DNA of 64,000 nucleotides from a virus, in the IMG/VR virus record IMGVR_UViG_3300047548_000772, positions 32,001 through 96,000 of that record. One strand, written 5' to 3'. Below are positions 29,212-53,382 of the stretch, one piece after another. The position numbers and the translations under genes were made by a program. Numbering within the stretch: the stretch's first letter is position 1; each line of letters starts with the position of its first letter. The notes beneath the pieces were generated by a model, which saw only the letters and a list, made by a program, of their open reading frames with translations, was not told the DNA's origin and ran no database searches.

Positions 29212-29486
29212 AACCACTTCAAGCCTTGGTTTGGCGACTACCCGGTGGTATGGCTGCTAACTTTTACGCACATAGGCTTAACCAAGAAGTAGGACAATGG
29301 GCCGAAACGCACCATGTTGATCCAAAATTGCTTAAATGGACTAACGTCAATTGGTATCGAGGCCAAAAAGCCCACTTTAGAATGTTGACTATGCCCAAGA
29401 AGTATGCTACAATATTTCTATTATCGTGGACTGGCAAGCCGCCAACTTACATAGACGAATACGTACATCCGGATGAACCAAATTAA
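29205..29486 (+). CDS. Small FxLxW-family protein
   Basis: Contains KKYATIFLLSW; start reassigned to MVEPLQ. Confidence 0.55.
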   Translation: MVEPLQALVWRLPGGMAANFYAHRLNQEVGQWAETHHVDPKLLKWTNVNWYRGQKAHFRMLTMPKKYATIFLLSWTGKPPTYIDEYVHPDEPN

Positions 29487-30471
29487 TCTTTGCAATTTAA
29501 CTTTAGAACAAACATACATGTCGCATTTATCCAATCGACAATGGTATTTTGAACGATCGCTAAATCGAGACTCGCTGGTTATTTCAGTTGGGGATTCATG
29601 GAGTTGGGGAATGGGACTACAATCTGACAACAACAGCGATAACATAGAATATCGCACTAACCATTGTTATGGAAGTATTGTTGCAAAGAGCACAAACAGC
29701 GATTTTATTAATATTGGATTTCCCGGGTACAGCAATATGCTCCACATCAATTATGCATTTGATGTTTTAAACAGACTAGTGAAGCCTTATAAAAAAATTT
29801 TTGTACTTTTAACCCTTAGCGAGTCTGGCAGAGACATATCAGACGATTTTTATAAACGTCCCGAATACTACAACTTATTGCGCGGCGGCTCTTGGCCTAC
29901 ATTCAATGACATTGTAACCGGTAGTGTTAAGTTCAACGAATTAAGATTTGCACTCAAAGAATTAAAGAGCAATAACATATACTTTGAGTACCCTCTTAAA
30001 GCATTTCTAAGAGCTAAGAATTTTTTCAATACCTTCGACATTGTTAAGTCACTAGAAAAAACTAGTTTTAAAATGCTCGTTGACAAAATCAAACAACAAG
30101 GTAAAAATATTCACTACGTTGTTGGTCGAACTTATGTAGACACGTTCAAAGAAAATGTTAGCATACTGGATTCAAATTTTTGCCTTTTATCAAAAAAATG
30201 GGTCGATATATTGGCCGAGCACACCAACAATCTGTATCCAACAAACGTGTATAACGTCACTCAGATCGGCATTGACACTTTGTTTGACTTTGATAATTTT
30301 GTACATTCAACTGCGGACCTAAGATCAAGGACCGAACTAATCGAATCATCTTTATCTGCTATCCATTGGTTAGAATCGTGTTCGTTGACTCGTGGCGAAG
30401 TGCCGTATCCCACAGAGCAAGGGCATCAACTGTGGGCCAATTATATACTTGAGAATATTAAACATGTCTAA
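29473..30471 (+). CDS. SGNH hydrolase-like protein
   Basis: VGDSWSWG block I, NIGFPGYSN; C-terminal YPTEQGH in place of HP. Confidence 0.65.
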   Translation: MNQINLCNLTLEQTYMSHLSNRQWYFERSLNRDSLVISVGDSWSWGMGLQSDNNSDNIEYRTNHCYGSIVAKSTNSDFINIGFPGYSNMLHINYAFDVLNRLVKPYKKIFVLLTLSESGRDISDDFYKRPEYYNLLRGGSWPTFNDIVTGSVKFNELRFALKELKSNNIYFEYPLKAFLRAKNFFNTFDIVKSLEKTSFKMLVDKIKQQGKNIHYVVGRTYVDTFKENVSILDSNFCLLSKKWVDILAEHTNNLYPTNVYNVTQIGIDTLFDFDNFVHSTADLRSRTELIESSLSAIHWLESCSLTRGEVPYPTEQGHQLWANYILENIKHV

Positions 30472-31420
30472 CATACTTGTTACCGGTGGTCTAGGATTTA
30501 TTGGACACAATGTTGTCCAATTGCTCGAACAACAAGGACATAATGTGCTTGTTGTAGACAACGAAACTACCTATGGCGTTATTCCGCAAGACGAGTTATC
30601 CAAACTTATACTAGAACGTAAACAAAAAATAAAAACCAACTCACTCTACTTCTGTGACATTGCTGACCCGCTTGCTGCAAAAATATTTGAACAGTTTAAT
30701 CCAAATACAGTTATACATCTTGCTAGCTTTCCTCGACAAAAAGTAGTTAATAATGATCCTGTATTAGGAAGCGCAACAATGAGTACCGGATTGCTCAATT
30801 TGTTGGAAGCAAGTGTAAGGTATAATGTTAAAAAGTTTGTGTACATTAGTTCAAGCATGGTGTATGGTGAATTCTCAGATGGGGTGCGCGAAGATGCTGT
30901 GTGTAATCCACTGGGACAATATGGAATTTTAAAGTTAGCAGGCGAATGGTTAGTGCGCGACTATACACACCGCACAGGATTAACACATACCATCATTCGC
31001 CCGAGTGCAGTTTATGGTCCGCGTGATGTTGAGGATCGTGTGATTAGCAAGTTTTTTGCTGCGGCAATGCGCAACGAAACTATTCATGTCAAAGGTGCCG
31101 ATGAATGCTTAGACTTTACCTACGTAGAAGATATTGCACGTGGTATCGTCAAGGCTACACTCACAGATTCTACTAACAACAAAACATACAACGTCACACG
31201 TGGACGAGCGCACTCGCTATTAGACGCTGCCAAACTTGTACAAAAGATTGTAGGGCAAGGTACTATCGAAGTTGAAGAACGCGACACAAACTTTCCATCG
31301 CGTGGTGCATTAAATATAGAAGCGGCATGTAGAGATTTTCTTTACACGCCATTGGTTGATATCGAACAAGGTTTTAAATTGTATTATGACTGGCTTGACC
31401 ATACCTTTCACAGGTCTTAA
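30464..31420 (+). CDS. NAD-dependent sugar-nucleotide epimerase/dehydratase
   Basis: VTGGLGFIG, HLAS, SSSMVYG, YGILK, RPSAVYGP, DFTYV. Confidence 0.92.
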   Translation: MSNILVTGGLGFIGHNVVQLLEQQGHNVLVVDNETTYGVIPQDELSKLILERKQKIKTNSLYFCDIADPLAAKIFEQFNPNTVIHLASFPRQKVVNNDPVLGSATMSTGLLNLLEASVRYNVKKFVYISSSMVYGEFSDGVREDAVCNPLGQYGILKLAGEWLVRDYTHRTGLTHTIIRPSAVYGPRDVEDRVISKFFAAAMRNETIHVKGADECLDFTYVEDIARGIVKATLTDSTNNKTYNVTRGRAHSLLDAAKLVQKIVGQGTIEVEERDTNFPSRGALNIEAACRDFLYTPLVDIEQGFKLYYDWLDHTFHRS

Positions 31421-32492
31421 AAAGCAGTACAACAATCTACGTTCAGAAATCCTTGATGTTACAGACGAGGTTCTTCGCAGTGGCCAACTGATGAATGGCA
31501 ATTGGACTGCGGAGTTTGAAAACTGGCTGGCTAAAAAGAATCGCACAGCACATGCAGTTACTTGCCACTCTGGCACACAAGCACTAGAAATACTAGCAGC
31601 ATTTTACAAACATTTGTTGGCCATGGATAGTCCAACTGTTGTTATGCCTACGTTTACCTATGCGGCAACTGCCAATGCATTTATTCGCGCAGGATGGGAT
31701 GTGCACTTTGTTGACACAGATTATTACGGTGTACTAGATCCCAAACACATACCAAACATTGAGTACCAAGCAATTATCTTAGTAGGCTTATATGGTGCTG
31801 CTCTTTCACAACTAGAGCACACACATCACTGGTTGGATTGGTCATTAAACGACAAGTATCTTATTGAAGATGCAGCACAACATTGGTTAGCAGCGGCTAG
31901 TCGACGCATTGGACCTACTGCTATTAGTTTTGACCCAATGAAGAACTTACCTTGCTATGGCAATGGCGGTGCTATTGTCACCGATGCTGCGGATCTCGCA
32001 CATTTTGCACGTGAATGGAGAGACAACGGTAAACCTATACATCACTTAGTGGGCACTAACTCACGTATGAGCGAACTAGACTGTGCGCATATGATGGTTA
32101 AGACTCGTTATATCGACCAATGGCAGTCGCGACGTAGAGCAATTGCAACATACTGGCTCGAACGACTAAGCAAACACCCTCAGATTAAAACACTAGTTGA
32201 TTCAAAGAACTTGTCTACACACGCACTACACAAGTTTGTTATTCATGTAGACAATCGAGATCAACTTCGTAAGATGTTAGAAGTTCGTAAGATTGAAACT
32301 AAAGTTCACTACGAACGCCCGCTACACGAAATGGGGATGTTTACACAATATCCAGGGCCTAACATGTTAAGCACAGCATCTTCATTGGCTCGTCGTGTGC
32401 TGTCGTTACCTATATACCCTGAACTAACAGATCTTGAAGTAGAATATATTATCGATCAGGTAATAGATTGCGTTTCAGAAATGCATAACTAG
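31386..32492 (+). CDS. DegT/DnrJ/EryC1/StrS PLP-dependent aminotransferase
   Basis: SGTQAL, PTFTYAATANA, EDAAQ, SFDPMKNL..YGNGG, GTNSRM, LSLPIYP. Confidence 0.93.
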   Translation: MTGLTIPFTGLKKQYNNLRSEILDVTDEVLRSGQLMNGNWTAEFENWLAKKNRTAHAVTCHSGTQALEILAAFYKHLLAMDSPTVVMPTFTYAATANAFIRAGWDVHFVDTDYYGVLDPKHIPNIEYQAIILVGLYGAALSQLEHTHHWLDWSLNDKYLIEDAAQHWLAAASRRIGPTAISFDPMKNLPCYGNGGAIVTDAADLAHFAREWRDNGKPIHHLVGTNSRMSELDCAHMMVKTRYIDQWQSRRRAIATYWLERLSKHPQIKTLVDSKNLSTHALHKFVIHVDNRDQLRKMLEVRKIETKVHYERPLHEMGMFTQYPGPNMLSTASSLARRVLSLPIYPELTDLEVEYIIDQVIDCVSEMHN

Positions 32493-34065
32493 CAAGCCAG
32501 TCCCACTCGTAACTTTTCTTTAGTTCATCAAAGTCGCCGTTGACTGTATCGTAGTATTCTACTGCATCAAGGGCGCCATAACGGCTCCAATCTTCGTTGA
32601 CCACTGCTGACAAGGTGTTAGTTTCCTTGGTCCATTGCTTAATACGATACGCACTTTCCATATCGGGCAAGTTTGCTTTGAGTTTTAGTACTTCGCGGAA
32701 AGCAGTACGCCAGGCAATCCAAGGTGTGTAGTTATAACGTGCAACACCAGACAAGATAGGTACAACTTCGTGAGCATCATCTAATGTAAAGTCTAGTCCC
32801 TTACCAGGATTGTTTAATACTAGTTGTTTGTTATAGGCAATCATTGCTTGATGCCCATACTCTAATCCGTTAACAGGATTCTTAGCATGGAAGATATAAT
32901 GCTTGGCTGCTTGTAGTCTATCGGGTTGCCAATCCCATGGAAAATCGATGTCAACTTCTAACTTGGCAAACACGGCAAAGAACCAATCAGTTTCGCTGGC
33001 AGCGGCAGCGGCTTTGTACGCGGCAGCACGACCATTAACTCCGTCGACTCGGTGTAATCGTAACGAACCATAGTAAGGTGCCACACGTGCTTGAAGCCAT
33101 TGCCAATGTTGTTCAGCACACGGTTCGCCGTTGCTGATAAACACAATGTCTAATAGACGTTCCGGCCAGTTAGCAATAGACTTGTCGATTACAGGATAAT
33201 CGTAGAGTTGTGTTTTTAAAAAGTTCTTTGCTTCCCGTGGAACAACAACGTTAGATGCACCCGGAGTAAGCGGCACAATCGCTTTGGTTTCTTGGCGCCA
33301 TAGATTAATCACAGGATCATAACCAATAGGATCATAACGTGCAAATTGTACTACAGGATCTCGAAAATCGTATTCCCATACTGCTGGTACTTGACTGTCG
33401 TGCTCGTGATGATACACAGGAATGGGTCGACGTTTTACTGAAATATCTTCTACAAAGTGAATAGTGTCAAACCACTCAAGCAACGCTAGGTTTTCTACTT
33501 TCTTTAAGAAACTCGGAACATGTACAAAAAACGTATCGCCAAACCTTTGATCTTGGCTTGGAAATACGTGTAACATATCTAACTGCCATTCACTAGGGTG
33601 CCATGTAAAGTCAAAATCTGTGTAATCACAAACGCTAGATACTACCCAAACATATTCTTCATTGACTTTGCTTAGTGCACGTTTTAGTGTGCCTAAGTAG
33701 TCGCTAATATAACGTGTAGAGTATTCGCAGTCAATGTTTAGTCCGTTGCCGTGATCAATACCAACTCGAGATATCTGACCCTTTCTAAGAACTATATCGT
33801 GATTACGATTAATATCGTTTACACCCGATTTAGGAATTAAGTAAGTGCCGCCGTTTTCTTGCCACTGACTAGGCCATACATGTGTTTGATCGGATTCCCA
33901 GGGCACAGGTTCCCAAAGCCAATCGAACCGAGAATAGTCATTCAGGCCATCAACGACCCATAAGTATCGAGTACGACTGAGTTCGCAGGCATGCTCTAAA
34001 CTATTAGCACGCTGTTCATGCGGAAATAGTCCAGTTGCATTATTTAGATAAAAAACGTCAAACAT
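32449..34065 (-). CDS. Protein with three degenerate GT-A-like repeats
   Basis: C-terminal repeat is clearly homologous to ORF 50155-51081; two shorter N-terminal repeats share the (Y/W)xWVV...F.W.P..W pattern. Confidence 0.7.
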   Translation of the reverse strand: MFDVFYLNNATGLFPHEQRANSLEHACELSRTRYLWVVDGLNDYSRFDWLWEPVPWESDQTHVWPSQWQENGGTYLIPKSGVNDINRNHDIVLRKGQISRVGIDHGNGLNIDCEYSTRYISDYLGTLKRALSKVNEEYVWVVSSVCDYTDFDFTWHPSEWQLDMLHVFPSQDQRFGDTFFVHVPSFLKKVENLALLEWFDTIHFVEDISVKRRPIPVYHHEHDSQVPAVWEYDFRDPVVQFARYDPIGYDPVINLWRQETKAIVPLTPGASNVVVPREAKNFLKTQLYDYPVIDKSIANWPERLLDIVFISNGEPCAEQHWQWLQARVAPYYGSLRLHRVDGVNGRAAAYKAAAAASETDWFFAVFAKLEVDIDFPWDWQPDRLQAAKHYIFHAKNPVNGLEYGHQAMIAYNKQLVLNNPGKGLDFTLDDAHEVVPILSGVARYNYTPWIAWRTAFREVLKLKANLPDMESAYRIKQWTKETNTLSAVVNEDWSRYGALDAVEYYDTVNGDFDELKKSYEWDWLASYAFLKRNLLPDR

Positions 34066-35176
34066 GATTCGTATTGATGAAATATATAATAACGTATTTC
34101 TAGCAGCATTGCAAGATCAACGGAGAACCTCTATACATTGGTTTGATCCTTTTGGGTCAACTAGTTTTGACGATATCAAAAGCGAACCCAAAATTCAAAG
34201 TATTCCTTATACAGGCCCGAACAACACAACACTATATTGGGAAGTTGATCATCGAATACTATTCTGGGATCAAGAACCATTACACAGAGATCGTGCTGCA
34301 CAATGCCTTGATTCATTTTGTGCTGTTTACAACTCACACAATAAGTATCGAACATTAGTAACTTCAGAATATTGCAGCGAAGATGTTCAATGGGCACAAG
34401 ATACTTATGGGCTAAGACCTGCGTATTATTTCTTTCATGCCTGGGCATCATTAGATTGGTACCGCGGGTACAATCACAGTTATCTAATAGAACCATTTAA
34501 ATACCGTCAGCCTACATACACATTTTTGTGCCCGAATAATATTATCGGCGGTCGTCGCCGACATAGATTAGAATTGTTATCGGAATTAATTGATCGTGAA
34601 CTTGTGTACAACAACTTGGTTAGCTTTCCAGATCGTTGTCCTTATGAAAACAAATCGGTTACTGAACTATGTCAGGAATACGACATAGACATGGCCGCCG
34701 TCGACTTACCGTTAAAGATCGATCACGGTGCTAATTATCATTCAGGTAGCCATCAAATTGACATGTGGTCGTTGGCCAGTCAAAGTCTGTTGCACGTTGT
34801 CACTGAAACTGTGTATAATGGACGTAAGCAACATCTAACAGAAAAAACATTTAAACCTATTGTTATGCAACAGCCGTTTGTTTTAGTCAGTTGTCGAGGC
34901 AGTTTAGAATACTTACGCAGGTATGGATTTAAAACGTTCAATGATGTGTGGGACGAAAGCTATGACGACGCAAGCGACGAGTCGCGTATTTTAAAAATAG
35001 GTAAATTGTTGTCGGACATTCACAACTTGTCTTTAAAAGAAAAACAACAGTTACAAAAGCATCTAACACCAATTGTCGAACATAACTACAATTGGTTTTA
35101 CTCCAATGACTATCAAAGTTTATTGTGGGACGAATTAACAACTATGGTGAATCAATGGTTTTATCGTTTTGTGTAG
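34064..35176 (+). CDS. Glycosyltransferase-like protein (ET..TEK family)
   Basis: LHVVTET...LTEKTFKPIVMQQPF...GFKTF. Confidence 0.7.
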   Translation: MIRIDEIYNNVFLAALQDQRRTSIHWFDPFGSTSFDDIKSEPKIQSIPYTGPNNTTLYWEVDHRILFWDQEPLHRDRAAQCLDSFCAVYNSHNKYRTLVTSEYCSEDVQWAQDTYGLRPAYYFFHAWASLDWYRGYNHSYLIEPFKYRQPTYTFLCPNNIIGGRRRHRLELLSELIDRELVYNNLVSFPDRCPYENKSVTELCQEYDIDMAAVDLPLKIDHGANYHSGSHQIDMWSLASQSLLHVVTETVYNGRKQHLTEKTFKPIVMQQPFVLVSCRGSLEYLRRYGFKTFNDVWDESYDDASDESRILKIGKLLSDIHNLSLKEKQQLQKHLTPIVEHNYNWFYSNDYQSLLWDELTTMVNQWFYRFV

Positions 35177-36345
35177 ACAAACTTGTCGACGGCAAGCCTT
35201 ATCCAAATGCTGCTGTTTGGCAAGCACAACCTTATACACCCGAATGGCGTAAATTTAGTGTTAACTGGCCGTATTCAGAACCTGTGCACTTTTTTGAATA
35301 TTTAGATCGTTGTAGGATTCCTTATAAGATCGTACAGTGGACACAAGCCGACCGCAACACATTTTATCCTATAAGTTTAAGCTTCTTTGATTTTGGTATC
35401 GATTGGTTCGCAACCATACGCCCAGAGATCAAGGAAAAGCTACGTGCCGACGGCCTAACACTTTGGTTCTTTTACAGCGAGGGCGACAACCCCAAACGCA
35501 TATACGAACATTTGTTAAAGCAAGCAGAACAACACACAATCAAACCTGAACGCATACGTTTTACCAGTGCAAACTCAATGGCAGATTCACTGGAAAACTT
35601 TAGTTACTTTGTTGACGATGAATGTCTATACCAATTGCGCAACACAGACGCTCCGGTGGACTTTCATACACAACCGCGCGATAAGAAATTTACTATGTTG
35701 GTTCGTACACACAAGTGGTGGCGTGCTACAACCATGGCTAGATTTTGGTCGCAAGGCTTGCATAAACAAGGTTACTTTTCATATAACAACGCACTAGGCG
35801 TAGATGACCAAGAAAATGATAATCCAATTGAAATTGATAGCTTTGAAAATCTACGCAACAATACCTATGAATTCTTAAATCAATGCCCGTTTGTTGCAGA
35901 TAGCCTTAGTCCGGACCAGCACAACTTGTATGCTACCACGGTTGAAGAACACTTCGGTAACAGTTATCTTAACGTTATATTAGAAACACACTTGGACGTG
36001 GATCAAAGTAATGGCGTATTTTTAACAGAAAAAACTTTTAAACCAATCAAGCATTCGCAACCATTTATTATATTTGGCGCAGCAGGTAGCATTGCACAAC
36101 TTCGTGCAATGGGTTACCGAACATTCGACCACGTAATTAACCACAATTACGATAGTATTGCTGATAACACACAACGTTGGGATGCAGCATGCCGCGAATT
36201 TGAACACTTAATGACCTGCGACTTACATCAATTATATCTTGCTTGCGAAGGTGATCTTCGACACAACCAACAATTATTCTTAGCAAGCAAAGAAGCCCGC
36301 GTAAATAGTCTACTAGAGAGAATAACACATGCAACCATTAGTTAA
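35155..36345 (+). CDS. Glycosyltransferase-like protein (ET..TEK family)
   Basis: LNVILET...LTEKTFKPIKHSQPF...GYRTF. Confidence 0.7.
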   Translation: MVLSFCVDKLVDGKPYPNAAVWQAQPYTPEWRKFSVNWPYSEPVHFFEYLDRCRIPYKIVQWTQADRNTFYPISLSFFDFGIDWFATIRPEIKEKLRADGLTLWFFYSEGDNPKRIYEHLLKQAEQHTIKPERIRFTSANSMADSLENFSYFVDDECLYQLRNTDAPVDFHTQPRDKKFTMLVRTHKWWRATTMARFWSQGLHKQGYFSYNNALGVDDQENDNPIEIDSFENLRNNTYEFLNQCPFVADSLSPDQHNLYATTVEEHFGNSYLNVILETHLDVDQSNGVFLTEKTFKPIKHSQPFIIFGAAGSIAQLRAMGYRTFDHVINHNYDSIADNTQRWDAACREFEHLMTCDLHQLYLACEGDLRHNQQLFLASKEARVNSLLERITHATIS

Positions 36346-37357
36346 TAGTTACACCAGCTGGCAACCACTTGAAGAAGTTATCGTAGGGCGAGCATACACG
36401 CCTGACTATTTTGATTTTATCGAAAATGCGCAAGTGCGTAACCAACTACAACAAATTCTAGCCGAAACTGATGAAGATTTAAACAATCTACAACGTATTA
36501 TTGAACAATACGGTGCTGTTGTTCGTCGTCCAGATTTACCAAACAAAGACTGGTTTATTGATTCGCAAATTAATTCAGACGGTGCACCGTTGCCTCCGCT
36601 TACTCCACGCGACTGGCAAATTAGTCTTGGACAAAAACTCCTGCGTGTGTTACCAATGACAGAGTTAAATGATATATGTAAACTCTACGGAGATCAAGTT
36701 ATTAACCCACACGGTGAAACATGGGATCCTAACTGTATCCTAAACGGTGCATCAGCAAGTTGTATCGTGCGTGTAGGACGTGACGTATTCTTTGATAACT
36801 CGGATCATTTAAAGCCAGAACAAACTCAATGGATAATCGAAAACTGCTTAGGACCGGAATATCGTGTGCATGAAGCAATCACCGATGGTCACGGCGATGC
36901 TGTATTTGCTATTCTAAAGCCAGGAGTTATTTTGAGCAGCAAGCACGATGTTAACTTAGATCTAGCCGGGGACTTTCCAGGGTGGGATGTATGTAAGATT
37001 TGGGATTCTAGCATTTGGGCTGCTATGGAAGTTGGTAAGTTCAAAGAAGAAAACTTCAACGGTTCCTGGTATGTACAGGGACAAACACCCACAGCAGAAT
37101 TTACAAACTTTGTAGATACTTACTTAAAGAACTGGGTAGGATTTGTATCAGAAACTGTGTTTGATGTTAATTGTTTAGTACTCGATGAAGAAAATGTAAT
37201 CTTCAGTGCTTACAACAAACAAGTATTTGATTTTTGCGCCAAGCACAAGATCAATCCTATTATTGCAGAACTGCGTCACAGTTACTTTTGGGATGGCGGC
37301 GTTAGTTGCTGTACCCAAGACATCCGACGCCGCGGCGGACTAGAGTCTTATCTCTAA
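36329..37357 (+). CDS. Amidinotransferase (glycine/inosamine-phosphate amidinotransferase family)
   Basis: NSYTSWQPLEEVIVG, PRD, HGD, C-terminal DGGVSCCTQDIRR. Confidence 0.82.
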   Translation: MQPLVNSYTSWQPLEEVIVGRAYTPDYFDFIENAQVRNQLQQILAETDEDLNNLQRIIEQYGAVVRRPDLPNKDWFIDSQINSDGAPLPPLTPRDWQISLGQKLLRVLPMTELNDICKLYGDQVINPHGETWDPNCILNGASASCIVRVGRDVFFDNSDHLKPEQTQWIIENCLGPEYRVHEAITDGHGDAVFAILKPGVILSSKHDVNLDLAGDFPGWDVCKIWDSSIWAAMEVGKFKEENFNGSWYVQGQTPTAEFTNFVDTYLKNWVGFVSETVFDVNCLVLDEENVIFSAYNKQVFDFCAKHKINPIIAELRHSYFWDGGVSCCTQDIRRRGGLESYL

Positions 37358-39635: not shown

Positions 39636-39733
39636 TTGTAGATAAATGGATCGCGCTTGCGAAGTTCCTTTAGTTTACGACGATAGTTAATTTCTAACTT
39701 AATTTTGTAATATAAATTACGAATCCAACCCAT
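39632..39733 (-). CDS. Small basic peptide (33 aa)
   Basis: Own translation MGWIRNLYYKIKLEINYRRKLKELRKRDPFIYK; AAGGAG RBS. Confidence 0.65.
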   Translation of the reverse strand: MGWIRNLYYKIKLEINYRRKLKELRKRDPFIYK

Positions 39734-39734
39734 T

Positions 39735-45883: not shown

Positions 45884-46868
45884 AAATGAATTTTAAGAAA
45901 TCGTTGTTAAACTGTGTTTGTCTATTACTATGTAGTTCAAATAAGTGCTGCTGGTTATATAAACGTGTTTCGGTTACTTCTTGCCAGAATTTAACTAAGT
46001 TTTGTTGGCACAACCACGTGACTTCGGCAATAATTCGATTTAATCTAGTTTGGTTGTCTTCAATTAAATCAAAAGATTCGTCAATTACGCTATTATACGA
46101 CATAAACCCCAGGTTGCGCAAGTCCCGATAAAATCCATAATTGGCTGCTACAATAAAAGGATGCGCTGCTAGTATAGGTTTATAAATCTTTTCTGTGCGA
46201 AAGCTATATGGGTATTCAACTACGGTTTCAGATACCAAGCTAAACCAAGTGTCTTGATATTGTTTAGGATAAACCATTCCGTCTATCCAAGCGGGTTCTA
46301 CGTCAGGATCGTAACCCTGCGGCAACAAATGTGGCTCAAAGCCTTGACGTGTGTATTCGCAATTAAACGCAGGATGCCCCCAGGTTGTTTGGCTTTCTCG
46401 TGCTGACCATAATGCACGATCTAATAGGCCTTGATGTTTTAATTCGGTAATTAAATATCTACGATGCGGGCGTATTTTTCTATTAGTAAAAAGAAATGTA
46501 AATGGTCTATTATTTGTATAGTCAATATCAGGGCATTGATTACCATTGGAATTCACAGTCATTGTTAAAAAATGCTCTGAATTAAGATTAACTACACTAG
46601 CATCGCCGCCGGTGATAAATCTCAGCAGCCCAGCATCAATCCATTGCTGATACTCTAAACGCTGTACTGTGTGCCATATGGTAGCGCAACTTTCGTCAAC
46701 CTTTTCTACACAAACAACACTGCCCGACTGTAAGCTACGCTCAACTATAGCCCAATATGAGTTTAGTGTGTTGACACTAATAACATAATGCCCTGGGTGT
46801 GCTGCAATAGTATCAACGCGACTGTCGGGATATGTTAGTGCTAGCCCAGGCTCAACTGTTATTGGCAT
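45876..46868 (-). CDS. Glycosyltransferase-like protein (ET..TEK family)
   Basis: FSLVSET...RTEKIYKPILAAHPF...GFMSY. Confidence 0.7.
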   Translation of the reverse strand: MPITVEPGLALTYPDSRVDTIAAHPGHYVISVNTLNSYWAIVERSLQSGSVVCVEKVDESCATIWHTVQRLEYQQWIDAGLLRFITGGDASVVNLNSEHFLTMTVNSNGNQCPDIDYTNNRPFTFLFTNRKIRPHRRYLITELKHQGLLDRALWSARESQTTWGHPAFNCEYTRQGFEPHLLPQGYDPDVEPAWIDGMVYPKQYQDTWFSLVSETVVEYPYSFRTEKIYKPILAAHPFIVAANYGFYRDLRNLGFMSYNSVIDESFDLIEDNQTRLNRIIAEVTWLCQQNLVKFWQEVTETRLYNQQHLFELHSNRQTQFNNDFLKFIYA

Positions 46869-48285
46869 AGTACTTGCACTCATCCCACCAGGCTTTCATT
46901 TCTGGGAATGTTGCTAAAAAGTCTGTGCCGCGGCGGCGATCATGTTCAGCGAAGAAACGATAAAAATCTGCTTTGTTGCGCTGTACATACGCAGGATCTA
47001 ACTTGGCACCATCGCGCATCCAAGCAATGTCACGATCTAGCCTAGCAATTTCATAGTCCTTAAACCCTTTAAAGCGAGTTTGTTCGGTTTCTGCATTTTT
47101 AAGCATATACACCCAAACTTCTTCTAAATGATCTGCATAGGATTCTGGCAGTAATTGCATACTTTGCCAAGCGGGTGTGCGTAGTACAGGCGTGTCAAAC
47201 CACACACGTTGATAATGATTAGAATAAATCTGACGCAAGCCTAGTATAGCTGTCATTAGATATTCAAGTGTGCTTACGCTTAAATTATTCATTGTAATAA
47301 TAAACGTAATCGAACTGCGTCCGGGAATTTCTGTTAAAAATTGATTAACACGATCCCATAATAGCGCAAAGTCTAATCCATTACGAATATATTCCGCACG
47401 TTCAAACATAGCATCTAAACTAACATATTGCATAAAGTGTTCAACGTGTGGGTCATTGTCGTCGCACAAGCGTTTAACATAGGACTTGTACTTTTGCCAC
47501 AGGCTTTCTTCTACTGAAAAATTACTGGTTACATTTAAATGTAACTTGGGATTGTGATTGGCCAGCACATAATCAAACACACGATATGTATTTTTATCCA
47601 TTAATGGCTCACCACCAGTCATGCGGAAATGTTCTAACTGTGGATAAAGCTCGGGCCACCACTGCCAAAATGCTTCTACATAAGGATTATGTTCTCTATT
47701 AGGTATTGGGCGGCGCTGCCCAGTAAAATAACCGGGATCATTATGAGGAGTGGAAGTAGGAAACGCTCCTTCACGCTGAGCCTCATCCATCCACGAACTC
47801 GAGAACTGAGGGCTACAGTAACTACAACGTAGGTTGCAAGCATAGTTAAAATTAACTTCAACATAACTGGGGATAGCATCTTCGTCTCCTGTGCTGTGTG
47901 CTATTTGATCAAAACTAGGTGCAGCCCAAGGTTCGCCCGAACGATAATGACGGTCCGATAATTTGCCATTATCTTCCATAGCCCAACAGTAACTACATTC
48001 TGCAGGCCGGGTTCCTTGTAACATTAACTTACGTTGCGACTTTTTATATTCAGTATTGTGTAATGCGCTGGGTTTACGCTGTATTTCTTCTACGGGTATA
48101 ACATGCAGTGGAGGATGATAGCACGAGTTATTCATGCCCGTGGTTAAATGTAAACTAACTTGCTTCCATTTGGCCAAGCACAAACTCGGACTAACTGCGT
48201 CTAGTTTTTCCTTGATTATTTCTGCATCACTTAAAAACTTTGATTTAAAGTCCTGTGTAACTTCATCGCCCTTGTTATTATTCAT
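46852..48285 (-). CDS. Radical SAM protein with N-terminal SPASM/twitch-like domain
   Basis: LCLAKW...SCYHP...CSYC; ACNLRCSYC; GGEP. Confidence 0.9.
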   Translation of the reverse strand: MNNNKGDEVTQDFKSKFLSDAEIIKEKLDAVSPSLCLAKWKQVSLHLTTGMNNSCYHPPLHVIPVEEIQRKPSALHNTEYKKSQRKLMLQGTRPAECSYCWAMEDNGKLSDRHYRSGEPWAAPSFDQIAHSTGDEDAIPSYVEVNFNYACNLRCSYCSPQFSSSWMDEAQREGAFPTSTPHNDPGYFTGQRRPIPNREHNPYVEAFWQWWPELYPQLEHFRMTGGEPLMDKNTYRVFDYVLANHNPKLHLNVTSNFSVEESLWQKYKSYVKRLCDDNDPHVEHFMQYVSLDAMFERAEYIRNGLDFALLWDRVNQFLTEIPGRSSITFIITMNNLSVSTLEYLMTAILGLRQIYSNHYQRVWFDTPVLRTPAWQSMQLLPESYADHLEEVWVYMLKNAETEQTRFKGFKDYEIARLDRDIAWMRDGAKLDPAYVQRNKADFYRFFAEHDRRRGTDFLATFPEMKAWWDECKYYANNS

Positions 48286-48736
48286 GTGAGTTTGTTCCGA
48301 GACGGTTAAGGTCAAATTGACTTTGATTCTTTAACATATAGCGCATTGGATTGTTTTCTGTTAAACACATTTCAATCGTACCGTTAAATCCCCAATAATT
48401 TTCGTGTGTGATTTCACTGTGATTATCACGGCGGCAACTAAAGACCTGATCTATTAGATCAATGTGTAAAGGAAAATTGTTTATTTTGATTCCTGTAATT
48501 TCAATCGCTTTGTCTTTGGTAATTGTGCCAGTGGCGTCAATTTCCATGTCGTTTTTATTTTTATTACTGACTGTAATTTTTAGTGTAGTCGGCCAATTTA
48601 CATCAAATGTAACAGTTGATGGTCCTTCGGGAAAATTATTGTTGCTGTAAATTTCTTGGTCGTCGCTACAGATTAACAAATGCATTGATCCGTTGCAATT
48701 TGTAGAATTAACATCAAAAGTAATTGTGGTTTTCAT
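48278..48736 (-). CDS. Accessory protein homologous to the C-terminal domain of ORF 5102-7213
   Basis: CNG, SNK, DKAIEITGIKINNF, GFNGT motifs align by eye. Confidence 0.75.
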   Translation of the reverse strand: MKTTITFDVNSTNCNGSMHLLICSDDQEIYSNNNFPEGPSTVTFDVNWPTTLKITVSNKNKNDMEIDATGTITKDKAIEITGIKINNFPLHIDLIDQVFSCRRDNHSEITHENYWGFNGTIEMCLTENNPMRYMLKNQSQFDLNRLGTNSHE

Positions 48737-50145
48737 GATGACAATTCTTTATGTGCTATACCTAGTGTGTCGTTGTTGCCCGACGTCGTCGGAATATTTA
48801 GATCCTTTAAAAGGTCCTTGAGTTCTTGTGCATATTTTATACGATCTTGAGTTGTTACGCAAGTAGTTGGTGTTATCCAAATAGTGGGTATTGATCCCAC
48901 TGAAATACCATATTCCTTTTGCTTTTTATCAAGTTGCGTATTTGGTAATATTGCTGCCAAAGAAAAAACTACTTGCGATACAGTATTGCGGGCGTATTGT
49001 TTTCGGTCCTTGAACCATTGTTTAGTGAATTCAAAGTCTTCTTTAGTCTCGGTTGGGTATCCAACAATTAACAATAACAGCAGTGGCACCGAATACTTTT
49101 GCGCCATTGCTAAATGATAATCAATTGCAGCATTGGTAAAGTTTTTACCTAGTGCTACGCGAACTTTTTCAATTACGCTTTCTATGCCAAGTTGTAAAAA
49201 CCCATTGGACTTTTTAAGTTTTTTCCAAAATTCTTCTGGGTGCTGCTGTTGGTTTCTAACAATAAAATATCCATCCCACGATATTTGCTGGTCAGGGTGT
49301 TGATCGTTGTACTCACAGATAAAATCCAATAATAGTCGAAACTCTTTCATGTTACCATTGGTCAAACTATTGTAAAAAAAGAATTTACGGATATTGTAGC
49401 GTTTAATTTGTTCGACCATTTCTGCAATAATGTTATCTGCAGTACGATATTGATATTTTTTCCAATGCTCAATTACATCGCAGAATTCACATGTGCGCAC
49501 ACACCCGCGGCTATCACATATTGGAATTCCTTGTTCTTTGTAATTGTCAAAATTGTAATCGTCAAAATCCGGATAAGGCAGTTGGTTAAGATCGCGTATA
49601 GGTTGCCACGCTGCTGAGTTAATTCCAATGTAGTTTAAGTTGTCTTTAAGGTACTCAATAATACTGTATTCACCGTCGCCGTTGATGTAATCGCTGATAT
49701 ACCCGTGACTCTTTAACATTTCGGCATAACTCATTGATGAATCTGCAATAAAGTTTTTAATACCGCTGCCGCCGATTACTATCTTAAGTGTAGGATTAGT
49801 ATATGATAAGTGATAGCATAGCCACAATCCAAAATATTGTGTGTCTTGAGTTAGAAAACTTAACCCTAGCACATGTGGGTTTACTTGTGTAATTCTATCT
49901 ACACAATAGTCTAACAAATCACCTATTTCTTGTTCAATGCCCGGGGAAAACTCTTGCTCCTTAAGGAACTTTTCAAGATCTTCGCGACGCGGACTTTGCT
50001 CGATTTTATTCATTACTTCGATGTTCAGATCAATGGCTTGAGCGTCGAAGCCGCTGGCTTTTGCGCAGGCTTTTAATAGCGCAGGAGCCAAAATAGGTCT
50101 TTGCGTTATAGTTCCTGGAACAGAAGCAAATAAAATATCAATCAT
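48733..50145 (-). CDS. Cobalamin-binding radical SAM protein
   Basis: LAPALLKA B12-domain start, DSRGCVRTCEFC, LGIES, IVGYPTET. Confidence 0.88.
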   Translation of the reverse strand: MIDILFASVPGTITQRPILAPALLKACAKASGFDAQAIDLNIEVMNKIEQSPRREDLEKFLKEQEFSPGIEQEIGDLLDYCVDRITQVNPHVLGLSFLTQDTQYFGLWLCYHLSYTNPTLKIVIGGSGIKNFIADSSMSYAEMLKSHGYISDYINGDGEYSIIEYLKDNLNYIGINSAAWQPIRDLNQLPYPDFDDYNFDNYKEQGIPICDSRGCVRTCEFCDVIEHWKKYQYRTADNIIAEMVEQIKRYNIRKFFFYNSLTNGNMKEFRLLLDFICEYNDQHPDQQISWDGYFIVRNQQQHPEEFWKKLKKSNGFLQLGIESVIEKVRVALGKNFTNAAIDYHLAMAQKYSVPLLLLLIVGYPTETKEDFEFTKQWFKDRKQYARNTVSQVVFSLAAILPNTQLDKKQKEYGISVGSIPTIWITPTTCVTTQDRIKYAQELKDLLKDLNIPTTSGNNDTLGIAHKELSS

Positions 50146-50154
50146 TTATTAAAC

Positions 50155-51081
50155 TTACCAACCTTCGATACTTCTAATAACGTCTATTTCGCGTGTCATA
50201 ACACCACGATTGTGCCAGTTGCTCCGATAATGATGCTTAAAGAAAGCACTTTGTTCTGCTAGTAGCATAGACATAGGCAAGTCAAGTTGAATATGTAACT
50301 CGTCGGCTACTGTGTTTGCTACTAATTCTGGTTGCGAGTCTTTGACAGTTAACCATAGTTCTTGTAACTTATCAAAGTTTTGTACCTCGGTATAATCCCA
50401 GTTTGTAAGCATAGTCATGTATGTGCCTTGGCGTGCGCCAGCAATTGCCCACATACCAAAATCCACATCTGCGCCTACGTTGTGCCAAATTGTTAAATGA
50501 TCTAGATTGCGCTTATGTACTAAGTCTTTGAACTCTGTTTGATTAGGTTTACGACCTCGATCTAAGCACATCTTGACGCCTTCGCGGAATCCTGCACGCC
50601 AAGCCTGGAACGCTGATCCATTAGGATATGTAGTTGAATAACAATCATGCATGGGCCAGTATAACGGATCGAAACAAAACTCCACTACAGTTTCGCTGCG
50701 TCCATCGGTATTTTCATGTGTGCGCATGTTATTGACAAACTCACGTGTCCAAGAACTTATACCACCGTTGCCGTACATTAGACCATTGATGTGATTACGA
50801 GCACGCCAACGTAGTGTTGCCTTTTCCCAGGATTCATCTGGAAACTCTAAGGTCAAGTTAAAGAAACTTTCGTCGGGTATGTTATCACCATCAATTAAGA
50901 TAAAACGTTCTGTGTCGGACGCTGCGGCTGCTGCTTTGTGTGCTGCATCGGATCCTTTGACACCATCTACACGTTTGGCCCAAGGTACCATATTACGAAT
51001 ACGCACCCAAAATTCTTCCTTTTGTGGTTCATCGTAGCTTAGGTAAATGCAATCTAAATCTGCTATATCAACTTGCTTCAT
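50155..51081 (-). CDS. GT-A glycosyltransferase-like protein
   Basis: DCIYLSYDEP, FILIDGD (DxD), YGNGG, AWRAGFRE. Confidence 0.65.
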   Translation of the reverse strand: MKQVDIADLDCIYLSYDEPQKEEFWVRIRNMVPWAKRVDGVKGSDAAHKAAAAASDTERFILIDGDNIPDESFFNLTLEFPDESWEKATLRWRARNHINGLMYGNGGISSWTREFVNNMRTHENTDGRSETVVEFCFDPLYWPMHDCYSTTYPNGSAFQAWRAGFREGVKMCLDRGRKPNQTEFKDLVHKRNLDHLTIWHNVGADVDFGMWAIAGARQGTYMTMLTNWDYTEVQNFDKLQELWLTVKDSQPELVANTVADELHIQLDLPMSMLLAEQSAFFKHHYRSNWHNRGVMTREIDVIRSIEGW

Positions 51082-51415
51082 AAGTTATCTCTGCTTTCCA
51101 GTAAGTTTTGTTAGGATAGTCTTTGCTGACAATAATAGTAATATCATCGGCGTAGCATGCATAGTCACCCGACTCAGCGGGCTTTAATTTCCAACTTTGC
51201 GGTACGCTTGTGTATATAATGCGACCATCGCGCACCACAGCGTCATATCGCATTTCAGCAAATGTTTGCCGATCAACAACAATAAAGTTGCCAGGAAGGT
51301 CGTCCATTGTGTAACATATAATTGTACCATCGTCATTGTAGTACAATCTATATTCTAGTCGTTGTTCCGGTTGCGACCAATCAAACTCTGCTAGTGCTTG
51401 TAAGAAGGGATCCAT
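51068..51415 (-). CDS. Hypothetical protein
   Basis: EYRLYYNDDG motif; start reassigned to MDPFLQ. Confidence 0.65.
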   Translation of the reverse strand: MDPFLQALAEFDWSQPEQRLEYRLYYNDDGTIICYTMDDLPGNFIVVDRQTFAEMRYDAVVRDGRIIYTSVPQSWKLKPAESGDYACYADDITIIVSKDYPNKTYWKAEITYEAS

Positions 51416-52217
51416 AATGTTTTTCCAATATATGTGCAAGAGCTTTTTCTTGATAATGCCATGCACCTTGTTGTTCTACTGTGTTAATGCGCACACGACC
51501 CTGATCCAATTCCCATACGTATTCTGATGTCCAAGGACGTATGTCTGACTTTAAATAATTGACCTGTGGTTTCATATGTATGATACTAGGCCAAGCATCG
51601 GGTAGTGTTACACGTTCTACGCCCATGTATTTGGCAACCATGGCATAAATCATGTCCGTGTTAGCAGGCACGTTGTCACAGAACTTTAGTGTTTTACGAA
51701 CTTCGGTCCATTGCTCAAAGAAGGTCTGCACTAGGTTGAAGAACTCCGCTGCTGTGCGACTAAGTCGCCAATATGTAATTGCATTGTACACATCGGGCAG
51801 ATCATTATCATCAAACATGCGTCGATATGCTCGACACTCACTAACATCATTTAAGTAGTTACGCATACCCCGGCTAATAACTACGTCGCGGTGCTCAAAC
51901 CATGACCACCAATGAGCAATGGATTCTGTAATTACCATGTCGGCTTCTAGTTTAATAGTTTCGCGGAACGGGCTGGCAGCAAACACTTGCCAGTCGTTGT
52001 GCCATCCGCCGACATCGCCGTATGGTAATGGCTTAACTAAATCAAATACTGGGTCAGTTTCTGTGTCGTTGGTTACTAGACAAATTTTGCAATCAGGCAT
52101 CCAATAACGTAGGCTTTTAGCCAGTGCTCTGGCACAAGCAAGATAGTCATCTTGGCCGTTGTTGCTGGCTAGGATTAAGTATCCACGTTCAAATTCTACT
52201 GCCACAGATTTTTCCAA
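51381..52217 (-). CDS. GT-A (GT8-like) glycosyltransferase-like protein
   Basis: GYLILA..N...DY, SPFRETIKLEAD; paralogue of the next ORF. Confidence 0.6.
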   Translation of the reverse strand: MEKSVAVEFERGYLILASNNGQDDYLACARALAKSLRYWMPDCKICLVTNDTETDPVFDLVKPLPYGDVGGWHNDWQVFAASPFRETIKLEADMVITESIAHWWSWFEHRDVVISRGMRNYLNDVSECRAYRRMFDDNDLPDVYNAITYWRLSRTAAEFFNLVQTFFEQWTEVRKTLKFCDNVPANTDMIYAMVAKYMGVERVTLPDAWPSIIHMKPQVNYLKSDIRPWTSEYVWELDQGRVRINTVEQQGAWHYQEKALAHILEKHYGSLLTSTSRV

Positions 52218-53010
52218 AGTCAGGTTTATTCATTACATGTAAGTCTGTATTAGACAATATCATGCGTTGATGACGTTCTTTAAACTCTACCATGCGTACA
52301 TAGTTAAGTTGAAACTGATCATCGTCTAGTTGATTTAGATATACATCATAAAAACTTGTTAACAAAGGCCAAGGAATACTAGGCACAGCGTTAGGTAAAT
52401 GTCCGTATAATGTGCTTAGTGCAATACTAATGGCGTAGTCATTGCGGTAAGGTTCTTCTTTGAATTTGTACAATCTGCTATAATGATAATAGTTGTTCTC
52501 TATCATATTCATCATAGCAAATGTATCTTCTGCTAGTCGGCTGCGCTTGAAATAAAGCACCGTTGCCCACCACATGGGAAATTCCACAAAGCCAAATCGT
52601 GTATCGATGGCAAAGTTTTCTCGATCTGTTACGTCTAGTACATAACGATGGCACAGTAAATCTTGTCCAACGTCAAACAATACTTTTAAACGATCGCTAG
52701 CAACAATGTAATCTGTATCTAAAACAAGCGTTTCATCGTATGGACTAAATGCATAAGCATTATGGCGCCCACAGTTGTACCAATGTGCGCTAGAATCGGC
52801 ATTCATATGATCGTATTTGCGTGTTCCGCCAGACTTTGATTCAGTGACAACAACGTTATCAAACATAGAGGTATCCTCGGGAGGATCATTTGTTACTAAC
52901 GTTGTTGGCAACCCTAAATGACGTTCAATGCGAGGTGCTGACCACTGTGCTTGACTAACATAGTCAACCTTGTCATTGTTAAATGCAAAAAGTACTGCGC
53001 CCTTGGTCAT
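52189..53010 (-). CDS. GT-A (GT8-like) glycosyltransferase-like protein
   Basis: GAVLFAFNN..VDY, SPYDETLVLDTDY (DxD), WATVLYF, RND. Confidence 0.65.
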   Translation of the reverse strand: MTKGAVLFAFNNDKVDYVSQAQWSAPRIERHLGLPTTLVTNDPPEDTSMFDNVVVTESKSGGTRKYDHMNADSSAHWYNCGRHNAYAFSPYDETLVLDTDYIVASDRLKVLFDVGQDLLCHRYVLDVTDRENFAIDTRFGFVEFPMWWATVLYFKRSRLAEDTFAMMNMIENNYYHYSRLYKFKEEPYRNDYAISIALSTLYGHLPNAVPSIPWPLLTSFYDVYLNQLDDDQFQLNYVRMVEFKERHQRMILSNTDLHVMNKPDFGKICGSRI

Positions 53011-53321
53011 CGTTGACGTGCTAATTCTTCGTGTTCGACTAACCAGGCATTCATTTGCTCTTGCCATATTTGCGATGCTTTGTCAAACAACTCTCGAGGC
53101 ACTACTTTTACAGGTGTGTCGTACAAATCTAAAAGCACAATGGCGGGTAGCCATTCGTCGCAAAGGTGTAAGGTAGCCATTAATTCTGGGCCTGCTCGCC
53201 ACATTCCACCAGCATGGGCAAATACCATTTTGCTGGCATACTTTTCTTTGAGTAGTTTCTTTTGCGTAGCGTGGTCAAAACGGCTACGTATTTCTTTAAC
53301 TAGAGTATCTGGATTAGACAT
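53007..53321 (-). CDS. Hypothetical protein
   Basis: FAHAGGMWRAGPEL...LDLYDTP. Confidence 0.7.
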   Translation of the reverse strand: MSNPDTLVKEIRSRFDHATQKKLLKEKYASKMVFAHAGGMWRAGPELMATLHLCDEWLPAIVLLDLYDTPVKVVPRELFDKASQIWQEQMNAWLVEHEELARQR

Positions 53322-53359
53322 ATTCATTCCGTAATTTTACTACAATATGTAGCAAAAGT

Positions 53360-53382
53360 AAAGGGCCCGAAGGCCCTTTTTT
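53360..53382. terminator. Bidirectional Rho-independent terminator
   Basis: aaagggcc-cgaa-ggcccttt with flanking A and T runs. Confidence 0.8.

Follow-up and report, generated by a model that had tools for sequence, protein, structure and literature searches.

The stretch of DNA analyzed here (the window; 64,000 nucleotides [nt], bases 32001-96000 of the 192,074-bp single-contig virus record IMGVR_UViG_3300047548_000772) contains a proposed glycan island at window positions 29473-53327, an approximately 23-kb block directly behind tail-fiber genes. The island encodes a short-chain dehydrogenase/reductase (SDR), a DegT aminotransferase, an amidinotransferase, an FkbM methyltransferase, a carbamoyltransferase, five radical S-adenosylmethionine (SAM) enzymes of the NF033640 family, a B12-type radical SAM protein, and seven glycosyltransferase (GT)-like genes. 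We consider it very likely that these genes form a co-selected, soluble module for glycan synthesis and tailoring. The full statement, according to which a Rak2/RsoM2USA-like jumbo phage has in the island a self-contained cytoplasmic unit that builds and edits glycans on a virion protein as acceptor, stands at about even odds (probability roughly 0.5). The island had been proposed in an earlier note made from the letters of the window. Its gene inventory was borne out overall by Pfam, NCBIfam, phmmer, and fold searches, and its claim of a heavily tailored, phage-built glycan has good support from co-conserved nucleotide-sugar enzymes, three GT folds, amidino-, carbamoyl-, and methyltransferases, and fusions between radical SAM and GT2 domains.

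Conserved gene order of the island

The genes with conserved positions are as follows (window coordinates, strand in parentheses).

30392-31420 (+): SDR nucleoside-diphosphate-sugar epimerase/dehydratase (PF01370, E 3e-44)
31356-32492 (+): DegT/PseC-type pyridoxal phosphate-dependent sugar aminotransferase (PF01041, E 4e-62)
32449-34065 (-): X538, two N-terminal repeats of about 110 residues without known family and a C-terminal X308-like (GT2-like) domain
34064-35176 (+): TEKa, GT-B glycosyltransferase-like paralog, aligns with TEKc
35125-36345 (+): TEKb, GT-B glycosyltransferase-like paralog, aligns with TEKc
36329-37357 (+): arginine-type amidinotransferase, AGAT/StrB1/SxtG family (phmmer against PDB sequences, E 2e-17)
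38151-39635 (-): carbamoyltransferase, NodU/CmcH/TobZ type (PF16861, 169 bits; PF02543, 106 bits)
39632-39733 (-): previously unannotated open reading frame (ORF) for a basic 33-residue peptide, stop overlapping the carbamoyltransferase start (ATGA)
39735-40820 (-): U361, conserved protein (72/80 loci; at least 5044 environmental homologues, all unnamed)
40795-42087 (-): R1, N-terminal-twitch radical SAM (NF033640, 287 bits)
42074-43288 (-): R2, N-terminal-twitch radical SAM (NF033640, 336 bits)
43285-44547 (-): R3, N-terminal-twitch radical SAM (NF033640, 374 bits)
44528-45883 (-): R4, N-terminal-twitch radical SAM (NF033640, 296 bits)
45876-46883 (-): TEKc, GT-B fold glycosyltransferase-like (AF2 model, pLDDT 79)
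46852-48315 (-): R5, N-terminal-twitch radical SAM (NF033640, 306 bits)
50155-51081 (-): X308, GT2-like (GT-A) protein (Atlas label "Glycosyltransferase 2-like" at 0.99)
51068-51466 (-): u132, conserved small protein (72 loci at about 36% identity; no family found)
51381-52217 (-): G8a, GT8-fold glycosyltransferase-like (AF2 model, pLDDT 76; EAD variant of DxD, invariant His)
52189-53067 (-): G8b, GT8-like paralog (aligns with G8a; DTD motif)
53007-53327 (-): u106, small helical protein encoded by the leading gene of the island operon (about 54% identity, 55 loci)

The R3 protein matched 226 IMG/VR contigs at 72-78% identity. Eighty of these loci were fetched and compared by tblastn of all island proteins, and five near-complete relatives (97-100% complete) were also extended and compared; the near-complete IMG/VR relatives measure 343-353 kb. 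All 80 loci and all five relatives have one gene order in common: TF513 and STG309 (the fiber-like genes described below), u106, G8b, G8a, u132, X308, R5, TEKc, R4, R3, R2, R1, U361, carbamoyltransferase, and in some cases FkbM. The opposite arm, which converges on the first, reads amidinotransferase, TEKb, TEKa, and then X538. In the five relatives, the left end is also conserved and consists of genes for a MoxR ATPase, a VWA protein, ThyX, SDR, DegT, X538, TEKa, and TEKb. This conservation of order is far beyond chance; the lack of co-conservation that the earlier note had named as evidence against such an island was clearly not seen.

The genes are tightly packed. From u106 to FkbM, neighbors overlap mostly by 4-90 nt, the exceptions being gaps of 9 nt (X308 to the B12-type radical SAM gene) and 1 nt (U361 to the 33-residue ORF). 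The amidinotransferase (+) and FkbM (-) genes converge, their stop codons overlapping by 4 nt (window 37354-37357), and no terminator was found between the two arms at this position.

Several genes were found to be accessory, as listed below.

29473-30471 (+): SGNH-like protein, accessory (GDSWSWG block and C-terminal PTEQGH [PTxxGH] motif)
37354-38160 (-): FkbM-type methyltransferase, sporadic accessory (PF05050, E 2e-16)
48278-48736 (-): u152, small protein of 152 residues beside the B12-type radical SAM, accessory (no family found)
48733-50145 (-): class-B (B12-type) radical SAM, accessory insertion (PF04055, 52 bits)

Of the genes listed in the earlier note, the locus comparison sets the SGNH-like gene, the B12-type radical SAM gene with its partner, and FkbM apart from the core. 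FkbM is present in about 10 of the 80 loci, the B12-type gene in one, and u152 in that same locus only (L071); the SGNH-like gene is missing at this position from all five complete relatives. The relatives have variable slots with extra divergent N-terminal-twitch radical SAM, TEK-type GT-B, SDR, SGNH, or FkbM genes, and these slots look cassette-like.

A smaller version of the island is present in a cultured phage. When 50,697 GenBank phage records were searched by tblastn with R2, R5, X308, and G8b, only RsoM2USA was found to carry X308, G8b, and an R5-like radical SAM gene; the sole other matches, Vibrio phages K566 and K567, contain only N-terminal-twitch radical SAM genes, four in a cluster. 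The RsoM2USA order is ORF355 (fiber-like), ORF354 (u106), ORF353 (G8b), ORF352 (G8a), ORF351, ORF350 (X308), ORF349 (radical SAM), and ORF348 (X308-like), directly after ORF356 and near ORF361. The core fiber/u106/G8b/G8a/X308/radical SAM is thus kept at 27-38% identity (38% for X308, 33% for R5, and 32% for G8b, with a weak match for u106), and a divergent metagenome contig (L084) repeats the same pattern. Three other contigs (L085-L087) recombine N-terminal-twitch radical SAM genes with TEK, B12-type radical SAM, carbamoyltransferase, and X538-type genes.

Judged from its structural proteins, the contig is kin to jumbo myophages of the Rak2/Atu_ph07/RsoM2USA type. The record is approximately 55% complete according to CheckV. 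Freshwater metagenome runs are almost the sole public runs holding sequence of the stretch, and no RNA runs are among those listed. A ThyX gene adjoins the island. Farther upstream, at 22377-25101 (+), a MoxR-type ATPase gene (phrog_1297) is paired with a gene for a DUF2201 metallopeptidase/VWA protein; the pair is found upstream of ThyX in 5/5 complete relatives at 65-82% identity.

Enzymes of the island

The earlier note described five SPASM-first radical SAM enzymes, and these are R1-R5. They are full-length members of NF033640 (N_Twi_rSAM), cover model positions 1-398, and score 287-374 bits against the curated NCBIfam cut-off of 170 bits. Their alignment contains four invariant N-terminal cysteines, the CX3CX2C motif (C123/C127/C130), and GGEP; Pfam SPASM was detected at the N terminus of three of them. 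The paralogs are 21-29% identical to each other, and each forms a separate orthologue group with 60-77% identity across related loci (64-77% for R1). The best hidden Markov model (HMM) matches outside the family are viperin and MoaA, which are nucleotide-modifying enzymes, and weak secondary matches include sactipeptide and ranthipeptide maturases. Homologues are abundant in environmental data: R2 has at least 7939 at 90% clustering, and a profile of R1-R5 retrieved 5520 clusters (50% identity) at E<=1e-30. Among 14 model genomes, no NF033640 member exceeded the cut-off. Two natural fusions link the family to GTs. P0201 joins an X308-like domain to an R5-like radical SAM domain, and P0175 joins an R4-like radical SAM domain to Pfam Glycos_transf_2. 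Both fusion proteins mirror the adjacency of X308 and R5.

Related radical SAM clusters were seen elsewhere. The cultured 255-kb Vibrio phage K566 (L082) has four clustered N-terminal-twitch paralogs at 161.5-168.3 kb, interleaved with hypothetical proteins. An Elusimicrobiota metagenome-assembled genome contains three NF033640 members adjoining B12-type radical SAM genes; at one locus (L083; G001 contig 14, 42-72 kb), an N-terminal-twitch enzyme is fused to Sel1 repeats and lies beside two B12-type genes, with a dozen more weak radical SAM/SPASM matches within about 30 kb.

For the B12-type radical SAM protein of the island, the best class-B match was TIGR03975 (E 6e-20, 71 bits versus a cut-off of 282). 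Alignments to class-B models begin at residues 64-120, within the B12-domain portion of those models, and Pfam finds only Radical_SAM. Homologues adjoin N-terminal-twitch genes in L083 and L085-L087. Of the earlier description as a B12 radical SAM with partner, the gene pair itself stands; the family matches are below threshold, the partner is without family, and the pair is confined to one of 80 loci.

The seven GT-like genes fall into three families: G8a/G8b, TEKa/TEKb/TEKc, and X308 with the C terminus of X538. The note's count of seven holds for the two GT8-fold and the three GT-B genes; X308 and the X538 C terminus are only weakly GT2-like. In a Foldseek search, the G8a model matched the GT8-type enzymes glycogenin, LgtC, XXYLT1, and LARGE1 and the GT8-like catalytic domain of UGGT among the top matches listed (E 1e-7 to 7e-6, probability 1.0), and D93 and H254 are invariant in the G8 alignment. 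Pfam Glyco_transf_8 matched neither G8a nor G8b, and the PDB profile search of G8 returned only a nonsignificant alignment to the DxD region of NleB (E 0.69).

TEKa, TEKb, and TEKc share an invariant E/T...TEK..KP..P motif, and TEKa and TEKb are kept in the relatives. All 50 of the listed top chains matched by the TEKc model in VIA are GT-B proteins (Z 12.4-8.6). The GT10 fucosyltransferases among them (Z 10.2-10.6) are tied with many other GT-B families, and the ...TEK..KP motif no more than resembles that of GT10. In the viral structure library BFVD, the relatives of TEKc are uncharacterized proteins of uncultured phages and giant-virus GT-B proteins (Mimivirus L138, GT10-like), and one TEK-like GT-B domain is fused to a UDP-glucose dehydrogenase domain. 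The PDB profile search gave nothing significant for TEK. A Pfam family was also sought in a lax scan of 17 members and rejected, as only scattered chance matches appeared.

X308 is the most conserved gene other than those for radical SAM enzymes (72-79% identity in 75 loci). It had no Pfam match and nothing significant in the PDB profile search. Its motif, the Atlas label, and the natural fusions weakly suggest that X308 and the C terminus of X538 are GT2-like. Kinship of X308 to G8 was considered and dropped, since hhalign found no relation. X538 is kept at 44-51% identity in the relatives, and its C terminus matches the X308-type genes of RsoM2USA and L084. Residues 1-210 of X538 hold a repeat, Y[LV]WVV..DY..FD..W.P..W...HV[WF]PSQ, which also fills several tandem genes in contig L086 (13100-19300).

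Profile searches confirmed the SDR, DegT, FkbM, and carbamoyltransferase genes named in the earlier note. The SDR protein, which probably begins at the ATG near 30464, contains the motifs GxxGxxG, SSSMVYG, and YxxxK; its active site (SSxxVYG/YxxxK) is epimerase-like and lacks the TDEVYG dehydratase motif, and all NCBIfam matches are under equivalog cut-offs. It is kept at 53-54% identity in 4/5 complete relatives. The DegT aminotransferase is PseC/WecE-like in NCBIfam, under cut-offs, with 59-63% identity in 4/5 relatives. Both domains of the carbamoyltransferase exceed the Pfam gathering scores (cut-offs of 27 for PF16861 and 24 for PF02543), and the protein is under the NodU equivalog cut-off in NCBIfam; it is present in 67 loci at 57-64% identity. 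At 283-2387 (+), 27 kb from the island, we also observed two genes, one matching phrog_540 (nucleotide-sugar epimerase) and one matching phrog_9148 (UDP-glucose dehydrogenase), as possible suppliers of a uronic-acid donor.

Pfam and NCBIfam models gave no match for the amidinotransferase. The earlier call nevertheless proved correct: phmmer matched AGAT (2e-17), StrB1 (5e-14), and SxtG (5e-11), with HsvA also in this set, which spans E 2e-17 to 5e-11. Three stretches spanning residues 5-342 align with AGAT, StrB1, and SxtG and cover the whole fold. The C-terminal motif GGxxC.T.D.RRRG..SYL and a His motif align, as do the catalytic Cys (SCCTQD versus HCWTCD) and His (GHGDAVF versus PHIDATF); the Asp of the triad lies outside the printed alignment. 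The gene is present in 45 loci at 62-82% identity. For the SGNH-like protein, the earlier call is upheld by its motifs and has no HMM support, Pfam and PHROG having given no match.

Between U361 and the carbamoyltransferase gene, an apparent 99-nt gap is filled by the 33-residue ORF. Every one of the 67 loci with the carbamoyltransferase gene has it, as do the divergent contigs L085, L086, and L088. The last 17 residues of the peptide (YRKKLKELRKRDPFIYK; ending in ...RYRRKLKELRKRDPFIYK) are invariant while 16 of the 17 third codon positions vary, and we therefore regard the ORF as translated and its peptide as very strongly selected. Pfam gave no family at E<=1, and homology to SxtK/DUF5989 was not demonstrated. 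Translational coupling and invariable adjacency suggest that the peptide and the carbamoyltransferase may be partners. The predicted complex of the two was graded "weak support", with an ipSAE of 0.58 versus 0.00 for the best control. The mark was reached by 58/80 solved complexes and 2/110 mismatched pairs, and just 7 of the 80 solved complexes, along with both mismatches, scored 0.60 or lower. At least 95% of contacts are shared between runs, with a partner pLDDT of at least 74. For U361, no match was found in Pfam, PHROG, PDB, or Atlas.

Fiber genes, candidate acceptor, and alternative explanations

Upstream of u106 lie the following features.

53334-53379 (-): intrinsic-terminator hairpin (53360-53379) and -10-like box between STG309 and u106
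53402-54331 (-): STG309, Ser/Thr/Gly-rich fiber-like protein, candidate acceptor (matches RsoM2USA ORF355)
54445-55986 (-): TF513, tail-fiber-like virion protein (phrog_14394 "virion structural protein", E 4e-11)
56041-56646 (-): s201, virion protein conserved in jumbo phages of the Rak2/Atu_ph07/RsoM2USA type (phrog_11259, E 3e-73)
56822-63991 (-): virion structural protein of 2389 residues (phrog_10938, E 4e-70)

The s201 protein (201 residues) matches 93 jumbo-phage records, and the 2389-residue protein has a partial match to RsoM2USA ORF361. ORF356, the s201 homologue, and ORF361 were found in RsoM2USA virions by mass spectrometry (PMC8504454). Among GenBank phages, the structural genes had no megablast match. 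The 37-53 kb part of the island is co-oriented with these genes and downstream of them, just as the earlier note had it. Its attachment to the tail operon holds as adjacency and fails as simple membership in that operon: the hairpin (AAAGGGCC-TTCG-GGCCCTTT, followed by ACTTTTG and then the -10-like box) lies between the two, and in 26 distinct related intergenic sequences it is kept with compensatory stem changes and followed by a TGTAYAAT box. Because of this conserved terminator and -10-like box, the island looks like a transcription unit of its own and no continuation of the tail operon. The late-promoter word YTGTAKWAWWA is no commoner than chance in the window.

STG309 consists of 33% Ser plus Thr, the highest value among the 132 contig ORFs of at least 150 residues (median 12%), and its orthologues keep 27-34%. 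A second group of Ser/Thr-rich large ORFs (21-26%, up to 2254 residues) was observed at 141-155 kb of the genome (window coordinates about 109000-123000). These are probably further fiber proteins, as judged from composition, and would be alternative glycosylation targets.

Three kinds of absence bear on the acceptor. No membrane helix was found in any island protein (no hydrophobic 19-residue window above 1.5). PF02397 (WbaP-type), PF00953 (WecA-type), and PF01943 (Wzx-type flippase) are absent from the five relatives of 97-100% completeness, indicating that a phage-encoded lipid-carrier route to the envelope is lacking. PF00303 (ThyA family) is absent from the 192-kb contig and from the same relatives; as a control, it was found in 10/14 genomes. 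ThyA-family enzymes make the hydroxymethyl pyrimidines of known DNA-glycosylating phages. Soluble enzymes without lipid-carrier genes and without ThyA leave a cytoplasmic acceptor. Given the composition of STG309 and the deep synteny between fiber genes and module, glycosylation of a virion protein is the leading reading and a plausible one, with STG309 as the best candidate acceptor on circumstantial grounds.

In the pathway that we infer, including its acceptor, the order of its steps, and each radical SAM reaction, the SDR and DegT enzymes, together with the UDP-glucose dehydrogenase and epimerase at 283-2387, would supply amino- and uronic-type nucleotide sugars. G8a/G8b, X308/X538, and TEKa/TEKb/TEKc would build an oligosaccharide directly on a soluble acceptor, most likely the Ser/Thr-rich fiber protein encoded just upstream or another virion protein. 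Twitch radical SAM enzymes of aminoglycoside pathways epimerize, oxidize, or dehydrate sugars. By analogy, each of R1-R5 could catalyze a radical reaction of its own on a sugar or nucleotide-sugar (epimerization, dehydrogenation, dehydration, or carbon-carbon chemistry), and each, anciently diverged, probably pairs with a neighboring transferase. The amidinotransferase and the carbamoyltransferase with its 33-residue partner peptide would add guanidino and carbamoyl groups, and in some phages FkbM, the B12-type radical SAM, or an SGNH esterase would add methyl or acyl-editing decorations.

Several observations weigh against this pathway. Its evidence consists of genes, and no glycan or modified protein was observed. 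The conserved terminator and promoter-like box mean that adjacency of fiber genes and island should not be equated with co-transcription. The alignment of X308 with the GT2 domain of P0175 covers the G..A...DxD region at a weak E of 0.083 (hhalign), and the best VIA match of TEKc is T4 DNA beta-glucosyltransferase (a tie within 1 Z, at Z 12.4). For NF033640 members, we found no solved structure in PDB and no described reaction in the papers searched. SPASM/twitch radical SAM enzymes act more often on peptides, other homologues of the island enzymes are fused to TPR, Sel1, or peptidase (subtilase) domains, and the K566 radical SAM cluster is without the island transferase families.

Four other explanations were weighed. 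Remodeling of the host envelope, in which the enzymes would alter a lipopolysaccharide, capsule, or S-layer glycan during infection, for example as a superinfection block, is unlikely. It is the published explanation for GT8/radical SAM cassettes in the tail-fiber cluster of pelagimyophages (PMC7029224), and the cluster of cyanophage S-SCSM2R was interpreted likewise (PMC12801897). GT8, GT2, DegT, and SDR proteins are also typical O-antigen enzymes, and the phage could still supply the machinery of the host with nucleotide sugars or soluble transferases. However, the island proteins are without membrane helices, the five near-complete relatives encode no polyprenyl-phosphate initiating transferase or Wzx flippase, and the module stays beside fiber genes in phages of very different hosts. 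We rate slightly lower the production of a free small molecule, an aminoglycoside- or guanidino-sugar-like metabolite acting on the host or on competitors. General profile scans revealed no cyclitol synthase, exporter, or self-resistance gene in the island, and seven transferase-like genes suggest an oligosaccharide, not a pseudo-trisaccharide. The minimal module of RsoM2USA has transferases and one radical SAM enzyme, without amidino- or carbamoyltransferases, and the persistent linkage to fiber genes would be left unexplained. Such a product would nevertheless fit the solubility of all enzymes and the resemblance of the set to the tailoring steps of aminoglycoside and saxitoxin pathways (an amidinotransferase like StrB1/SxtG, a carbamoyltransferase like TobZ/SxtI that is coupled to a small peptide, and DegT); twitch enzymes such as BtrN act in pathways of this kind.

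Radical modification of a peptide or protein appears a little less probable still. Here, the twitch enzymes would cross-link, epimerize, or edit the fiber or the 33-residue peptide (as the precursor of a RiPP, a peptide made on ribosomes and modified after translation), and the transferases would then glycosylate it. The prevalence of peptide maturases among SPASM/twitch enzymes, the weak matches to sactipeptide and ranthipeptide maturases, the TPR and Sel1 fusions, and a strongly conserved peptide with aromatic residues in the operon are in line with this. The peptide, however, always accompanies the carbamoyltransferase (ATGA overlap), even where the flanking radical SAM gene differs, and it is absent from the RsoM2USA mini-module, which keeps a radical SAM gene; its invariant part is Lys/Arg-rich, unlike known cores, and the radical SAM fusions found join GT2-type domains. 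DNA hypermodification, in which the transferases would glycosylate phage DNA bases and the other enzymes would tailor the attached sugar, is the least probable of the four and quite improbable. The T4 enzymes are close in fold to TEKc (alpha-glucosyltransferase at Z 10.6 beside the beta enzyme), ThyX is encoded beside the island, and virus-encoded glycan hypermodification of DNA is known (Pyle et al. 2024, as cited in PMC12619734). But no ThyA-family deoxynucleoside monophosphate hydroxymethylase is encoded by the contig or the five relatives, TEKc groups in the viral structure library with uncharacterized phage and giant-virus GT-B proteins, not with DNA glucosyltransferases, and the island lies in the structural region, away from the nucleotide-metabolism region.

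An extended form of our preferred reading, glycosylation of a virion protein, is tentative and on present evidence rather doubtful: the N-terminal-twitch family, whose thousands of clusters come mostly from environmental phages, would be a new class of carbohydrate-editing radical enzymes, five of which, acting in series with dedicated transferases, would produce a radical-tailored guanidino/carbamoyl glycan on tail fibers.

Comparison with known systems

The module is large, abundant, and under strong purifying selection, and a radical-SAM-rich glycan pathway is without characterized precedent. From gene content, we regard the system as a new, radical-SAM-rich form of virus-encoded glycosylation whose target and chemistry are putative. 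If fibers are decorated, this would bear on host recognition or adhesin protection in abundant freshwater jumbo phages and would give a large family of orphan enzymes its first function. Should the extended reading prove true, the glycan would be the first on a protein to be edited by radical SAM enzymes, and phages would have a further layer of immune evasion or host recognition. R1-R5 share the N-terminal four-Cys twitch motif, CX3CX2C, and GGEP with NF033640 at large; what distinguishes them is a single operon in which five diverged paralogs are fixed together with GTs.

Giant viruses encode their own glycosylation machinery, as exemplified by the Mimivirus fibril cluster and the chlorovirus capsid glycans. 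Like the island, they provide nucleotide-sugar enzymes of their own (a dehydratase and an aminotransferase of DegT type) as well as GT-B/GT-A transferases, and with these decorate virion fibrils. The likeness of TEKc to Mimivirus L138 and GT10-like proteins is at the level of the fold only (E 5e-5 to 5e-4), and giant viruses, in contrast to this phage, are viruses of eukaryotes. We know of no radical SAM set reported in giant-virus glycosylation machineries.

Among phages, virion glycosylation is established for mycobacteriophages (Freeman et al. 2023, as cited in PMC12619734). In the systems as summarized there, soluble, phage-encoded GTs likewise adjoin structural genes, and virion proteins were proposed to be glycosylated in the cytoplasm. 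They differ from the island in having few GTs and, in that summary, no radical SAM enzymes or amidino- and carbamoyltransferases, and the island for its part is known from genes alone. The moraphages of that paper were set aside as close kin, being of a lineage other than that of this phage.

In the tail-fiber regions of pelagimyophages, Zaragoza-Solas et al. described a "host recognition cluster" that contains radical SAM cassettes along with GT sets rich in GT8, and they proposed modification of the host O-chain (PMC7029224). The likeness to the island lies in GT/radical SAM cassettes in the tail-fiber region of large aquatic myophages that vary by cassette gain and loss. The pelagimyophages are, however, of a T4-like lineage, and the likeness is one of annotation. 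Cyanophage S-SCSM2R has a DegT-like aminotransferase, an inosamine amidinotransferase, and a radical SAM protein among many GTs, listed as "antibiotic synthesis genes" (PMC12801897). Its genes are not close relatives, since tblastn of R2, R5, X308, and G8b found only RsoM2USA and K566/K567. Neither study analyzed the enzymes. In saxitoxin clusters, the carbamoyltransferase SxtI works with the small proteins SxtJ and SxtK (PMC2679770), and there, as in the island, a carbamoyltransferase is accompanied by very small proteins.

The closest counterpart is RsoM2USA ORF348-355 (MG752970), with the same core order at 27-38% identity beside virion proteins proven by mass spectrometry (PMC8504454). Unlike the island, it has one radical SAM gene instead of five and is without amidinotransferase, carbamoyltransferase, U361, and the peptide, and its genes are annotated as hypothetical. 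As this cultured phage carries the minimal core, the question of what such a module builds is directly testable.

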